Assembly: GCA_905233625.1 (NCBI GenBank)
Contig: CAJOFJ010000011.1
Location: 13,378-77,377, forward strand
Source: an uncultured Bacteroidales bacterium
GTDB lineage: Bacteria; Bacteroidota; Bacteroidia; Bacteroidales; WCHB1-69
DNA: 64,000 bases
Direction of reading: 5' to 3'
The notes below the pieces were generated by a model. The model was not told where the DNA came from and did no database searches. It worked only from the letters and a program-made list of their open reading frames with translations. The first letter of the stretch is position 1. The number at the start of each line of letters is the position of its first letter. The position numbers and the translations under genes are program-made. This document shows, in pieces, positions 56,862 through 61,627 of the stretch.

Positions 56862-59800
56862 TTACAGACCATTTGTTATCTCTTCCGCTATCAGTTCCGC
56901 TTGTTTCAATACCGTTTCCGTAGCCAAATGCTGCATATCGGGAGGATAACCATATTTACGCAACAAGCGTTTCACCGCCACCTTCATCTTTGCCCGTACA
57001 TTTTCTTTAATGGTCCAATCAATGGAGGAATTTTTCCGAATGGTTTCTGTCAGCACGACTGCCAACTCACGGAGTTTGTCCTTACCCATTAATTCTTGGG
57101 CACTCTCATTGTCGGCAACAGCGGAATAGAATGCGTACTCGTAGGTGGTAAGGCCCATATTTTCGGCATCTTTGTCTTTCTCTACGATGGTCTTGCTCAA
57201 CTTGATCAATTCATCAATGACTTCTGCCGCAGTGATAATTTTGTTATGATAACGGGTGATGGAACCATCTAACATCTCCATCAAAGTGCGACCTTCCACC
57301 ACATTGAACTTTGCTCTTGATTTGATTTCGCCCTCTAACAGTTTTTTCAGCACCTCCAATGCAATGTTTTTGTATTCCATATCTTTCAATTCCATCAGGA
57401 ATTCTTCTGAAAGAATGGAAATATCGGGCTTTTTGATACCTGCCGCATCGAATAAATCGATAACTTTTTCTGAAACTAATGCCTCGTCTATCACCTGACG
57501 GATAGTGGTTTCGATTTCTTCATCTGAATGGCCCAATCCCGTTTGGTCGAATTTGCAAAGGCGGGCTTTCACGGCTTGGAAGAAAGCCACCTCATCCTTC
57601 ACGTCCATGGCTGCATCCTGAGGGATGGCCAAAGCAAAGGCTTTGCCCAAGGTGGTCACCTCGTTCACGAAACGCTTTTTGCCATCGTCCAAACCCAAGA
57701 TAAAATCTTCGGCTTTCAGAATCCAAGAAAGTTTTCCAGACGTGTCAGCAGTAAAATATTGTCTGTAGTCGAAACCAAAAAACATCTGCTCCACCACTTC
57801 CAACTTCTCTTGCATCAAGGCAACGGCCTGTTCCTGCTGCAAAGTAGGGTCACCCTTGCCGCCCGAATCGGAATAGAACGACAAGGCCTTTTTCAAATCT
57901 GCCGCAATACCTAGGTAATCAACCACCAGACCACCGGGCTTATCCTTATAAACACGGTTCACACGGGCTATGGCTTGCATCAGGTTATGGCCTTGCATGG
58001 GTTTATCTATATAAAGCGTGTGCAAACAAGGCACATCAAAACCAGTCAGCCACATGTCGCGCACAATGACCAGCTTTAACTCATCATTTGGGTCTTTCAT
58101 GCGGTCTGCCAATGCCCTGCGCTGCTCTTTGGTGGTATGATGTTTAGCGATATTGGCACCATCGGAAGCAGATGAAGTCATCACTACTTTGATTGCACCT
58201 TTCGCCAAGTCGTCGGAATGCCATTCGGGACGAAGTTTGATAATTTCGTCATACAGTTCAGCGGCTATACGACGACTCATCGCCACAATCATAGCCTTGC
58301 CCTCAAACACCTTCTGGCGTTCCTCAAAATGAGTCACAATATCTTTTGCGATGTTCTTTATTCGGTTCGGGCTGCCAATCAGTGCCTCCAACTGCGTCCA
58401 TTTCGCCTTGGCCTTCTGAACATCGTTCATGTTTTCGGTTTCCAACTCTTTGTCGAGTTCTTCCACCAAACGACGACCTTCATCGCTCAGCGCCACTTTG
58501 GCGAGACGACTTTCATAGTAAATGCGCACCGTGGCACCATCCTCCACAGCTTGAGCGATATCATATACATCGATATAATTGCCGAACACAGCGGGCGTGT
58601 TTTTATCATCTTTCTCAATGGGCGTACCCGTAAAGCCAAGATACGTGGCGTTGGGAAGAGCATCTCGCAAATATTTGGCAAAACCGTATTTGATTTCCGA
58701 ACCAATCACCTCATCAGCCTCGTTCCTCACCTCCACCGTTTTGGCCTTGAAACCATATTGGGTTCGGTGGGCTTCATCAGCAATCACAATAACATTGCTG
58801 CGATCCGTGAGTTGATCATATACATTACCCGATTCGGGCTGGAATTTTTGTATTGTTGTGAAAACCACACCACCCGATTTCACTTGTAGCAAGCGTTTCA
58901 AATGCTCGCGGTTTTCTGCCTGAACTGGTGTTTGACGCAACAATTGCTTGGAACCAGTGAAGGTGTCAAACAACTGGTCATCAAGGTCGTTGCGGTCAGT
59001 GATGACCACGACAGTCGGATTGTTGAGTTGCTGCACAATCTTCCCGACATAGAAAACCATTGTCAGTGACTTGCCACTGCCCTGCGTATGCCACACCACA
59101 CCGGCACGATGGTCCCCGACTTCTTGTCGTTGTACGGTTTCCAATCCGTAATGGGCTGGCGATTCCGCCACCATTGGCATTTGATTGATGCCTGTTGCTC
59201 GGATGGTCGATTCTACAGCCTTATTCACAGCGTAGTATTGGTGGTAAGCAGCTATCTTCTTAACCGTTTTGATGATGGTGAGCCCTGTCTTTAAATCCTC
59301 CTGTTTCTGCTTTTCAAACACCGTGAAAGAGCTGATAAGATCGAGCAATGTATCCTTGCACATCATGCCTTTGACCAACACCTCCAATTCACTCACCAGA
59401 TGTGAAGCAATACTCTCTCCGTCATCACTTTTCCATGCAGTATAACGGCTAAAACCCGCCGAAAGCGAACCTGCTCGTGCCTCCAAGCCGTCGGAAATAA
59501 CAACCAAAGCGTTATAGGTGAACAGCGACGGAATCTGTTGCTTGTAAGTTTCGATCTGACGATAGGCACTTTGCAGTGTGGCATTTTCATCGGCGGCATT
59601 TTTCAACTCGAAAACCACCAAAGGCAAACCGTTCACAAACAGTACTACATCGGGGCGACGGTTATGTCCGTTTTCGATGATAGTAAACTGGTTAACCACT
59701 GTGAAATCGTTGTTCCACGGGTCATCAAAATCAATGAGCCAAACCCTTTCGCCACGTTCCACACCATCCTTGAACACCGACACTGGAATACCTTCTGTTA

Positions 59801-60077
59801 GCAGACGGTGGAATTCCTCATTATTGGCCAGCACATCAGGAGAACTGATGCGCAGCACCGTTTTGATGGCCTCATCCTGCACGGAATAAGGCAAAGCCGG
59901 ATTGAGCCGTTTCACCGCCTTCTCCAATTTATCGCGAAGCACCACGGTCTCAAAACTCTCGCGCAAAGGATTCTCACCATCGGGTGCGATGTCGGGACCA
60001 TAGAAATACTTGTATCCCTTGGCCTTCAGCAGGTCGATAAGCATCTGTTCTATGTCGGATTCGTGGAGTGGAGGCAT
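56862..60077 (-). CDS. hsdR: Type I restriction endonuclease subunit R
   Basis: N-terminal PD-(D/E)xK ([19 protein letters not shown]), SF2 motor ([26 protein letters not shown]), and a C-terminal HsdR-type helical domain. 1071 aa and apparently intact. Confidence 0.95.
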
Positions 60078-60082
60078 AATAC

Positions 60083-60592
60083 TTATAATTGAACAGAAGG
60101 AATATATTTGGTAATATCTACAACAGGCAGATGACTGTCATTAGCATTCACTGTAGAGATAAATTGGGAACATTCCTCGGAAGAAATCTTTCCCCTGACA
60201 AATGCATAATACAGAAAATCCAGCGTGGTCAGGTATTTGATTTGTTCCCTGCAACAATATTCTTTAATATCTTTCAGGTTACTGCTTCCAATAACATGAT
60301 GTGTGAACTTGCAGTATGCCATACAGGAACTCTCCCCTTTGCCAAAATTCTTGAGAAGAAGGGCATACTCTTTCAGCATGGCTCCTGTGGGATTGAATGG
60401 TTCTAGCGTGATGTTTTTCAGGAAATGCACCTGGTTATCCACCTGATTACGGATAGAATGAATTTCCTCGTAAACAGAGCTGAGGATCACATGCTCGTAT
60501 TCTGAGAGAATATCGGGCAAAAGGCTCAGCATACCACCCTTTGAAAAGTGAATCAGCACATCAGCATCCAGAACAATTCTCACTTTTGCCAT
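60083..60592 (-). CDS. PIN-like domain protein (COG2405/DUF3368-like), possibly catalytically degenerate
   Basis: [12 protein letters not shown]...[10 protein letters not shown]...[11 protein letters not shown]...[10 protein letters not shown] follows the PIN beta1-D / E / GE pattern, but SSN sits where a DD is usual. ATG 60592 chosen. 5-nt gap to hsdR. Confidence 0.5.
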
Positions 60593-61295
60593 AACCGATA
60601 AGATTAAGAAGTTCGAGATAGTGGCCTTCGGATATGCGGTTCTCATCAAAAAGTTTACGGGCTTTGGAACCGAAGTCGCCGATAATCAGACCTTCATTGC
60701 CTTTCTGGTACAGGTCAAGGTCGTATCCTCGCAACCGGGATTCTGTAGTAATGCTGCGATTCATCATCTCGTCAGCGCATGCTGGAGTTATAACCCGCAA
60801 TTCCTTTAAGCGCAGGACCAATGTCTGGTGTGAAATACCGAACAGATGTTCCAAGCGGAGTAATGTGTCAATTTCAACCTCCTTGTTAGAGATTTCAGCG
60901 GTGGATATGTTCTGTAGCAAGCCCTCTTTCGGCATCAACAATGCAGAGGCGAACATGTTGGCAGATCGTTCAGCAGGGTCGGTATCGTTGTCTCTGCTGC
61001 AAAAATGCGGTTTGGGATTATCGTCGAAATACAGGTGGTACAACTCATGGGCAATAGTGAAATGCTGTCTGCCACGGGTTGAGTTGCTGTTCACCAACAT
61101 GAACTGATGCTTTTTGTCGGATGAGGCAAGTGACATCCCAAACAGATTGTCAGACAAGGGCCGATATACCGTCATAATATTCAGCTGCCGCAATGCGGTT
61201 TTCATATTGACGGGCTCGTTGCTGGATATGCGGAGATATTCACTACGCATTTTAGCCGCGAGGAGATCAGCTGTTTCAAGGTTCAACTTTTTCAT
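60561..61295 (-). CDS. ImmA/IrrE-family (COG2856) Zn-metallopeptidase
   Basis: HFTIAHELYHLYFD (HExxH) at the typical position, and ERSANMFASALLMP downstream. Confidence 0.85.
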   Translation of the reverse strand: MKKLNLETADLLAAKMRSEYLRISSNEPVNMKTALRQLNIMTVYRPLSDNLFGMSLASSDKKHQFMLVNSNSTRGRQHFTIAHELYHLYFDDNPKPHFCSRDNDTDPAERSANMFASALLMPKEGLLQNISTAEISNKEVEIDTLLRLEHLFGISHQTLVLRLKELRVITPACADEMMNRSITTESRLRGYDLDLYQKGNEGLIIGDFGSKARKLFDENRISEGHYLELLNLIGYGKSENCSGC

Positions 61296-61627
61296 TTTGC
61301 CAGTAATCTTTCCATTTTCAAATAGTGAAGCACAATGTTCTTGAAGGCAGAGACTTCGTGCATATCGCTTGCGGAGAGGTCATGGGCGCGGAATGCACAG
61401 GCCAGTTCTGCTTGCAACAGTTCCGGATTTTCCTCAAAAAACAGGGCGAGGTCGCAGCCGAACAGAGCCGCGGCTTTCTCAAGGGCCTCCAATGGCATCT
61501 CACGTTCCCCCGACTCATAGTTGGCATACGCCGACCGGCCGATATTCAGATACTCGGCCACTTTCTCCTGCGTAAACCCGCTGTCTTCACGTAGAATTTT
61601 GAGATTCCGTCCGATAGTTTTTTTCAT
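61292..61627 (-). CDS. XRE-family helix-turn-helix transcriptional regulator
   Basis: IGRNLKILREDSGFTQEKVAEYLNIGRSAYANYESGEREMPLE is a classic HTH_3. ATGA overlap with the ImmA gene. Confidence 0.9.
   Translation of the reverse strand: MKKTIGRNLKILREDSGFTQEKVAEYLNIGRSAYANYESGEREMPLEALEKAAALFGCDLALFFEENPELLQAELACAFRAHDLSASDMHEVSAFKNIVLHYLKMERLLAK

Follow-up and report, generated by a model that had tools for sequence, protein, structure and literature searches.

We analysed a stretch of 64,000 nt (hereafter, the window) from an uncultured Bacteroidales bacterium (WCHB1-69; assembly GCA_905233625.1, contig CAJOFJ010000011.1, positions 13,378 to 77,377, forward strand), and in it four genes encoding an XRE-family helix-turn-helix (HTH) repressor, an ImmA/IrrE-type M78 metallopeptidase, a PIN-fold protein and the type I restriction subunit HsdR. 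We consider it likely that these genes are the end of a complete type I restriction-modification (R-M) operon with slots for passenger defence genes between its M, S and R genes, that the XRE-ImmA-PIN trio is one of these passengers, a toxin-antitoxin (TA)-like switch, and that hsdR is co-transcribed. The apparent "orphan" state of HsdR is an artefact of the place where the window ends. Position numbers are window coordinates, and designations such as L001 or L070 refer to comparison loci or contigs.

The type I operon beyond the window end

An earlier note on this DNA described the four genes as a restriction motor without M or S partners, guarded by a protease/repressor switch. Part of that description holds. 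The list of open reading frames (ORFs) agrees throughout with the minus-strand layout given there, in which xre and immA overlap by 4 nt (ATGA), immA and the PIN gene overlap by 32 nt, a 5-nt gap separates the PIN gene from hsdR, and a spacer of 333 bp lies upstream of xre. HsdR is intact, as claimed: four Pfam domains were found (HSDR_N, 1.3e-54; SWI2_SNF2, 9.4e-79; T1R_D3-like; T1RH-like_C, 1.8e-128), together with the NCBIfam family TIGR00348 hsdR (3e-187) and the motifs PD..ExK (residue 142), GSGKS (residue 333) and DEAH (residue 434). Likewise, tblastn searches of the 64-kb window with the HsdM and HsdS proteins of this operon detected neither gene, as the note had said. On the other hand, its conclusion that HsdR has no M and S partners does not hold, since both are encoded upstream on the same strand.

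This became apparent from L001, an 86-kb contig of the European Nucleotide Archive (ENA) that encodes the exact XRE protein, shares 12,709 bp with the window with 0 mismatches and extends 7,627 bp further than position 64000 (L001 positions convert to window coordinates by subtraction from 71628). Just beyond that position, and in the same operon, L001 carries intact hsdS and hsdM genes, which start ~0.95 kb and ~3.1 kb past the window end, respectively; therefore, the orphan reading falls. The whole locus consists of nine genes on one strand, in the order hsdM - HEPN - MNT::hsdS - hamA-like - hamB - xre - immA - PIN - hsdR (Table 1). Judged from its sequence, the type I gene set is complete, with R, M and an S subunit with two target recognition domains (TRDs) on one strand. 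The window edge cuts through hamB, for which the ORF listing gave a helicase of 668 aa starting from a GTG at 63967, while the real gene encodes 769 aa and crosses the window end. This cut contributed to the self-contained look of the locus.

The specificity subunit is fused to a second domain. Residues 1-100 of the MNT::HsdS protein correspond to an MNT nucleotidyltransferase and residues 102-468 to a full two-TRD HsdS: Methylase_S was matched in 2 stretches (3.4e-46), and positions 2-395 of the 406 positions of the PADLOC Specificity_I model are covered by residues 102-468. The fusion comes directly after the HEPN gene. Similar fusions of 484-507 aa occur in L077, L094, L099 and L120, and MNT (102-126 aa) and hsdS are separate genes in L082, L087, L088, L100, L103 and L118. 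Between hsdM and the HEPN gene, 302 bp (L001 4523-4824) are without a called ORF. As for the 230-aa hamA-like protein, no HamA/DUF1837 match was found with PADLOC, Pfam or NCBIfam, while the adjoining HamB was recognized at 1.5e-61. The gene overlaps the start of hamB, the place expected for HamA, and may encode a HamA that has diverged or some other partner. This gene is 90-98% conserved beside hamB in L008 and L070.

The variability of the cargo was followed in a sister set of 43 metagenomic loci carrying the same HsdR family and having sequence upstream of it. All those with enough upstream sequence display hsdM...hsdS...hsdR with variable cargo. The trio is present in two of the 43 (L072 and L077) and absent from the remaining 41. 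The commonest neighbour of hsdR is a Fic/DOC gene with a winged HTH; SoFic-like, HD-CE/HATPase, STAND NTPase, Schlafen/AlbA, TIR, AAA_13, YhcG/DUF1016, IS200 transposase, RloA/RloB (L009) and AAA_14-DUF4143 genes are also found in the slot. In L070 the site is empty of the trio: hamA-hamB (98% and 93% identity) abuts hsdR (94% identity) through the junction TAA-TT-ATG.

Table 1. Genes, repeats and regulatory features of the operon (window positions, unless L001 is named)
Feature	Coordinates	Strand	Description
hsdM	L001 3002-4522	same as hsdR	506 aa; N6_Mtase 9.5e-112, HsdM_N 7.9e-28, PADLOC MTase_I 2.4e-195
HEPN/NTase_sub_bind gene	L001 4825-5259	same as hsdR	
MNT::hsdS fusion	L001 5268-6677	same as hsdR	469 aa; ~950-2360 bp past the window end
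hamA-like gene	L001 6687-7379	same as hsdR	230 aa; overlaps hamB
hamB, full gene	L001 7358-9667	same as hsdR	769 aa; PADLOC HamB 1.5e-61 (full protein)
hamB, 3' part	61961-64000	minus	679 codons, runs off the window end; Hachiman helicase
Left repeat copy	61917-61961	minus	hsdR pseudo-start, GTG at 61958, reading frame 61908-61958; two nt past the hamB stop
Remnant ORF	61816-61887	minus	MQNDLNMAKELD..., with degenerate promoter box; YhcG/DUF1016-type cargo scar
Candidate XRE operator	61685-61727	.	palindrome GTGGCAAA-N27-TTTGCCAC; single occurrence in the window (0 expected by chance)
TAnnTTTG (-7-like) box	61689-61696	minus	TATTTTTG; overlapped by the right half of the palindrome
xre	61292-61627	minus	XRE-family HTH repressor, 111 aa (ORF list)
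immA	60561-61295	minus	ImmA/IrrE-type M78 metallopeptidase, 244 aa (ORF list)
PIN-fold gene	60083-60592	minus	169 aa, ATG start (ORF list)
Right repeat copy	60036-60080	minus	45-nt direct repeat; true hsdR start, ATG at 60077
hsdR	56862-60077	minus	type I restriction subunit, intact (1071 aa), encoded at the end of the operon

The gene downstream of hsdR is an unrelated protease gene, as reported earlier, and Pfam identifies it as a C10 peptidase with a type IX secretion system (T9SS) sorting domain. It encodes a secreted protein of 1004 aa (53770-56784, minus strand) with a Spi inhibitor-like propeptide, the C10 cysteine peptidase and a T9SS sorting tail. Residues ~705-745 also bear a weak resemblance to M6/M66 zinc proteases and contain the motif HEMGH, and the protein may be a fusion of two proteases. 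Concerning base composition, the PIN gene has a G+C content of 40.2%, rather than the ~32% first reported for it; the low-G+C parts of the locus are the spacer (32.1%) and hamB (33.9%).

XRE-ImmA-PIN as a portable module

The assignments of the first two proteins of the trio were confirmed by Pfam, which found HTH_3 in XRE (3.6e-13) and Peptidase_M78 in ImmA (3.9e-17), the latter with the sequence HELYH (HExxH) at residue 83. The closest solved structure to XRE is the DNA-binding domain of ImmR from ICEBs1 (7t8i, 2.3e-6); those closest to ImmA are IrrE (3dte) and CapP (7t5t), to which its similarity is remote (E ~2e-3). Among the PADLOC models, ImmA matched PDC-M69B (6e-29) and capP (1.2e-22), and the RmrA models matched XRE (2.4e-7) and ImmA (3.3e-18) separately. 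RosmerTA (RmrT/RmrA) is an anti-phage TA system whose antitoxin, RmrA, is a single fused XRE HTH-M78 protein. The combination of an XRE HTH with an M78 peptidase is common to the two systems; however, it is divided here between two genes, the RmrT toxin is unrelated to PIN, and no RmrT homologue was detected at the locus with PADLOC.

We used a scan of species-representative genomes to survey the distribution of the trio, obtaining 66 loci, nearly all from Bacteroidales of the rumen or gut. In practically every one, the PIN gene comes after xre and immA. About 13 of the 66 loci lie in a type I R-M context, while ~80% are located beside unrelated or convergent genes, with no hsdR nearby, which speaks against the earlier picture of the trio as a unit placed before hsdR. 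In 17 loci the trio is followed by a convergent gene, and elsewhere by an unrelated one (for example, a pyridoxal phosphate (PLP) enzyme/PALP, MsrA, GH97 or ABC-F). In 10 R-M loci the same HsdR family (82-91% identity) is encoded downstream of the trio, with a gap of <=7 nt in 7 of them. Another cargo gene is interposed between PIN and hsdR in L004, L007, L009 and the sister operon L077. In L006 the hsdR start lies at the contig end. Furthermore, the trio follows a different hsdR in L050 and is flanked by an M and an S gene in L044.

The closest trio in the genome collection, that of L005 (75-80% identity), is found outside an R-M context, and the R-M-linked trios are scattered over several places of a neighbour-joining (NJ) tree, a simple identity tree without bootstrap or other support values. 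Both observations speak against a single ancestral insertion and point to several gains or losses. A phage or prophage origin was also rejected, given that only 2 relatives were found among 2.9 million viral contigs. Judged from these neighbourhoods, XRE-ImmA-PIN is a portable autonomous module. Its enrichment at R-M loci fits the cargo slot of the operon, which also hosts Fic, YhcG, RloA/B and Hachiman genes.

The third protein had to be placed by structure. It gave no Pfam match above threshold, and none with hmmscan even at E<=1; nor did the protein or its family have a significant NCBIfam or PDB sequence-profile match. Profile searches that found HTH_3, M78 and HSDR_N in the other proteins left PIN, DUF3368 and DUF4411 below threshold. 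Weak precomputed DUF3368 matches exist for the protein and many homologues, and PF01850 is touched by 2 of 86 relatives (E=1e-3). The fold was assigned solely from a predicted structure and Foldseek. The AlphaFold2 model, built with 86 diverse homologues, has a pLDDT of 95.7 and a pTM of 0.90, and its best PDB matches are 1y82 and VapC4 (5h4g), with TM values of 0.6-0.68, in agreement with the PIN-like fold proposed earlier. Four acidic residues, D9, E43, D108 and D125, are invariant or >=90% conserved among the 86 homologues, down to 30% identity; in the model they sit after β1, at a helix start, and after β4 and β5. The acidic pattern of Shigella VapC is D7/E42/D98/E119, and the modelled layout of the four residues matches it. 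The S103-S104-N105 ("SSN") sequence, which had been taken to replace the last acidic pair, precedes D108, and S103-x-N105-x-x-D108 resembles the T-x-N-x-x-D-F motif of VapC. Since the acidic residues are kept, the protein is probably an active nuclease or toxin. It also matches PADLOC PDC-S70 (1.5e-5). The family comprises 1180 relatives in 639 clusters at 50% identity, and the homologues are all 169 aa long and begin alike, supporting the ATG start.

In L059, L061, L064 and L066-L069, the PIN gene is split or cut to an N-terminal remnant of 26-107 residues, while xre and immA are full length. This is the pattern expected if PIN is the harmful partner, and it suggests that selection acts against PIN in these 7 loci. 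Three-component TA-like systems of the type HTH-COG2856/DUF955-PIN have been predicted (Makarova et al. 2009, PMC2701414; Matelska et al. 2017, PMC5499597). The trio shares with them an Xre HTH, an M78 Zn-peptidase and a PIN fold with four conserved acidic residues, encoded by co-directional, overlapping and patchily distributed genes. It differs in that HTH and peptidase, often fused in the published sets, are separate here, and in that this PIN family is below threshold for DUF3368, DUF4411 and the other Pfam PIN models. We know of no experimental validation of this PIN three-component family; no experimental test of XRE-ImmA-PIN turned up in this work either, in which no search was aimed at one. 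Overall, the domains and the conserved trio support the earlier proposal of a cleavable XRE/ImmA repressor switch with PIN as the third gene of a TA-like or defence module.

Cassette boundaries at the start of hsdR

The presence of a TA-like defence cassette within a type I R-M operon follows a known pattern. Examples are TgvAB in VPI-2 of V. cholerae (PMC11411939) and PrrC in the EcoprrI locus, and embedding of this kind has been the subject of a "guilt-by-embedding" survey (Payne et al. 2024, bioRxiv 10.1101/2024.01.29.577857). The rlo genes of Campylobacter R-M loci are embedded defence genes likewise, and RloA/RloB occupy the slot of the sister locus L009. As in those loci, independent modules are found here among hsdM, hsdS and hsdR on the same strand, and ImmA and PIN match the survey's PADLOC candidates PDC-M69B and PDC-S70. 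On the other hand, three modules (HEPN-MNT, Hachiman-like and XRE-ImmA-PIN) are combined here in one operon, and repeats of the hsdR start bracket the cassettes. These repeated junctions are the less expected part of the arrangement; a term search of the survey (bioRxiv 10.1101/2024.01.29.577857) did not find them, and no wider search was made.

In the window, the two copies of a 45-nt direct repeat are 87% identical and 1881 nt apart, bracketing a cassette of 1881 bp. The right copy is the true start of hsdR, while the left copy (nhmmer E=8e-10) aligns with the hamB-hsdR junction of the empty-site locus L070. Extra same-strand copies of the hsdR start occur at cargo boundaries in L004, L008, L010, L011, L054, L071, L078 and L113, and three copies are present in L077 and L120. 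Moreover, hsdR genes directly following the trio begin with ATGCC (MPPLH or MPQLH), whereas the others begin with ATGAC or, at one locus, ATGAA (MTQL.../MTKL...). The start variant (ATGCC vs ATGAC) tracks the identity of the cassette immediately upstream, so that the cassette appears to carry its own copy of the hsdR start.

Traces of another cargo gene are preserved in the spacer. Intact YhcG-type genes of L094 and L120 have a leader and first 12 codons matching those of the remnant ORF, whose own -7 box carries a mutation and reads TATCTATG. The part of the spacer between 61816 and 61916 holds a conserved promoter/leader, TTTGACAATTGACTATCT[A/T]TGCAAAACGATTTGAATATGGCG; the same leader precedes Fic and YhcG cargo in sister operons, which indicates a shared cassette 5' end. 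The 333-bp spacer described earlier thus retains its length and its promoter-like box, but it is by no means featureless: a remnant hsdR start, a cargo-gene remnant and an operator/promoter region lie inside it.

Two classes of junction can be distinguished, with breaks after ~nt 41 and after ~nt 44-45 of hsdR. These two classes, together with a divergence of 13-15% between repeat copies, seem to fit spread by homologous recombination better than a precise site-specific insertion. The junctions can be read as cassettes inserted or replaced by recombination at the hsdR start, a RecA-type process between homologous operons being the simpler reading. A further step, which we propose tentatively and hold to be plausible rather than probable, is that recombination uses the first ~45 nt of hsdR as a handle and that the operon is a cassette array, in which each cargo has its own promoter and is bracketed by hsdR starts. 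The proposed units would be the XRE-ImmA-PIN, Fic and YhcG cassettes and a three-gene unit of L120 that includes an IS200-type gene. If so, cassettes would insert, stack (as the three repeats in L077 and L120 would indicate) and swap between operons, an intact hsdR start being regenerated each time, in an integrase-free, integron-like shuffling of defence genes; the XRE-controlled promoter would also make the supply of R subunit damage-inducible. Arrays of the integron attC or Campbell type similarly have cargo units in series, with their own promoters and bracketed by one short sequence, and here each insertion leaves the operon with its last gene restored. Unlike in integrons, what is repeated is the coding start of hsdR, in copies that have diverged to the extent given above, and neither an integrase nor an attC-like structure was found.

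Promoter control and alternative readings

The sequence upstream of xre contains a candidate operator. In 54 of 61 trio loci, R-M-linked and others alike, a palindrome, GTGGCAAA-N27-30-TTTGCCAC, precedes xre at a distance of 60-100 nt. Of 64 such palindromes, 55 overlap a TAnnTTTG box (the -7 consensus of Bacteroides), whose TTTG comes from the right half of the palindrome. The palindrome would be the repressor operator at the promoter of the trio. An XRE repressor paired with an M78 metallopeptidase, with a palindromic operator over its own promoter, is also the arrangement of ImmR/ImmA (ICEBs1), CapH/CapP (CBASS) and DdrO/IrrE (Deinococcus), from which the trio differs in having one PIN gene as its output, instead of a mobile element or a CBASS operon. 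A scan for sigma-70-type promoters was discarded, its matches being no more numerous than in shuffled sequence and the method being invalid for Bacteroidetes; therefore, the TAnnTTTG motif was used instead. The sole intergenic TAnnTTTG boxes in the whole locus lie 33 nt upstream of hsdM and upstream of xre. No terminator-like hairpin was detected in any intergenic gap of the locus, no separate promoter motif (TAnnTTTG) between the xre promoter and hsdR, and no second operator near hsdM or hsdR. Since neither terminator nor separate promoter motif was found, some XRE-dependent transcription of hsdR is possible. Considering the comparative data, such control looks incidental, arising from position, rather than designed as a guard on the R subunit. 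The earlier proposal of one transcription unit with hsdR behind the XRE switch is thus retained as far as gene packing and the lack of a terminator or second promoter motif are concerned, while the distribution of the trio does not support a guard by design.

In the reading we favour, that of a passenger cassette, a 1.88-kb unit with its own promoter and operator would have inserted within the first ~45 nt of hsdR, leaving a decayed start copy upstream of it and an intact start downstream. An XRE dimer would bind the palindrome over the -7 box and repress its own cassette until a signal, which by analogy with ImmA, CapP and IrrE may be DNA damage or single-stranded DNA, induces the M78 peptidase to cleave XRE. 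The promoter would then open and the PIN nuclease would be made or released, degrading RNA and causing growth arrest in a TA-like or abortive-infection response; XRE may double as the PIN antitoxin. Transcription of hsdR would start at the hsdM promoter, by read-through, and additionally, as a positional side effect, at the XRE-controlled promoter, and restriction would proceed through the ordinary M2S1R2 complex.

Several points weigh against this account. The account is a prediction with regard to the cleavage of XRE, the toxicity of PIN, the signal and the transcripts. The promoter assignment rests on a short consensus, Bacteroidetes promoters being outside the scope of the scanning tool; the PIN family is below threshold for every Pfam model, with weak precomputed DUF3368 matches; and the NJ tree is of the simple kind described above. 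In addition, type I R-M contexts are clearly over-represented among the trio loci (~13/66) and the hsdR start variants (ATGCC...) travel along with it, so that some functional coupling with hsdR is possible.

Such coupling was central to the earlier model. In a weakened form of it, XRE and ImmA would act as a CapH/CapP-like switch that keeps the R subunit low and boosts it upon DNA damage or infection, resulting in inducible restriction, with PIN as a co-effector. We regard this weakened model as unlikely. The 5-nt distance between PIN and hsdR, the uninterrupted stretch from the xre promoter to hsdR, the 7 species-representative loci in which the trio abuts hsdR with a gap of <=7 nt and the conservation of the trio-linked start variant MPPLH agree with it, and CapH/CapP-like pairs are indeed known to regulate defence operons including DISARM (bioRxiv 10.1101/2022.04.27.489752). 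These regulators, however, are usually located upstream of, and divergent from, the target operon (same reference), while xre, immA, PIN and hsdR share one strand (minus) here. Moreover, ~80% of the trio loci have no hsdR nearby, 17 end at a convergent gene, and in the four loci listed above other cargo separates PIN from hsdR; the single candidate operator lies upstream of xre, and the promoter-like box upstream of hsdM could provide read-through. The headline of the earlier note, a guarded orphan motor, does not survive the presence of hsdM-hsdS in the operon, the portability of the trio and its absence from 41 of 43 sister operons. The note had named two observations that would together argue against its model, hsdM-hsdS in the same operon and a trio not enriched beside hsdR: the former was found, and the latter was not, the trio being in type I R-M at ~13 of 66 loci.

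Alternatively, the trio could be chiefly an addiction or stabilisation module, that is, a selfish TA-type element keeping itself and the defence island and having no anti-phage role of its own. This appears improbable. A mobile, patchy three-gene unit with the TA-like architecture predicted in PMC2701414, whose PIN gene decays in 7 loci with xre and immA kept and which is rare on viral contigs (2 matches among 2.9 million), would be compatible with it, but the trio is enriched in defence contexts, the PADLOC models matched by ImmA (PDC-M69B, 6e-29) and PIN (PDC-S70, 1.5e-5) derive from defence-embedded genes (bioRxiv 10.1101/2024.01.29.577857), and a signal-sensing protease is more elaborate than addiction needs. 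Finally, that the PIN-like protein is a non-catalytic adaptor or HsdR partner, as the note had suggested from the SSN sequence and as its place next to hsdR and the lack of a Pfam PIN model above threshold might indicate, is very improbable given its near-invariant D9, E43, D108 and D125, the superposition of its model on active VapC toxins and the absence of an hsdR neighbour from most members of the family.

These results correct a tempting misreading: the window cut through a long operon, and there is no orphan, guarded HsdR. What is found instead is a natural example of stacked immunity in one probable transcription unit, comprising R-M, HEPN-MNT, a Hachiman-like pair and XRE-ImmA-PIN, with testable parts in the form of a candidate operator, a cassette boundary and an empty site. 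The candidate operator and the PIN effector make the trio a tractable system for the long-predicted three-component TA model, and the repeated hsdR-start junctions provide a concrete hypothesis for the embedding of defence genes in R-M operons.

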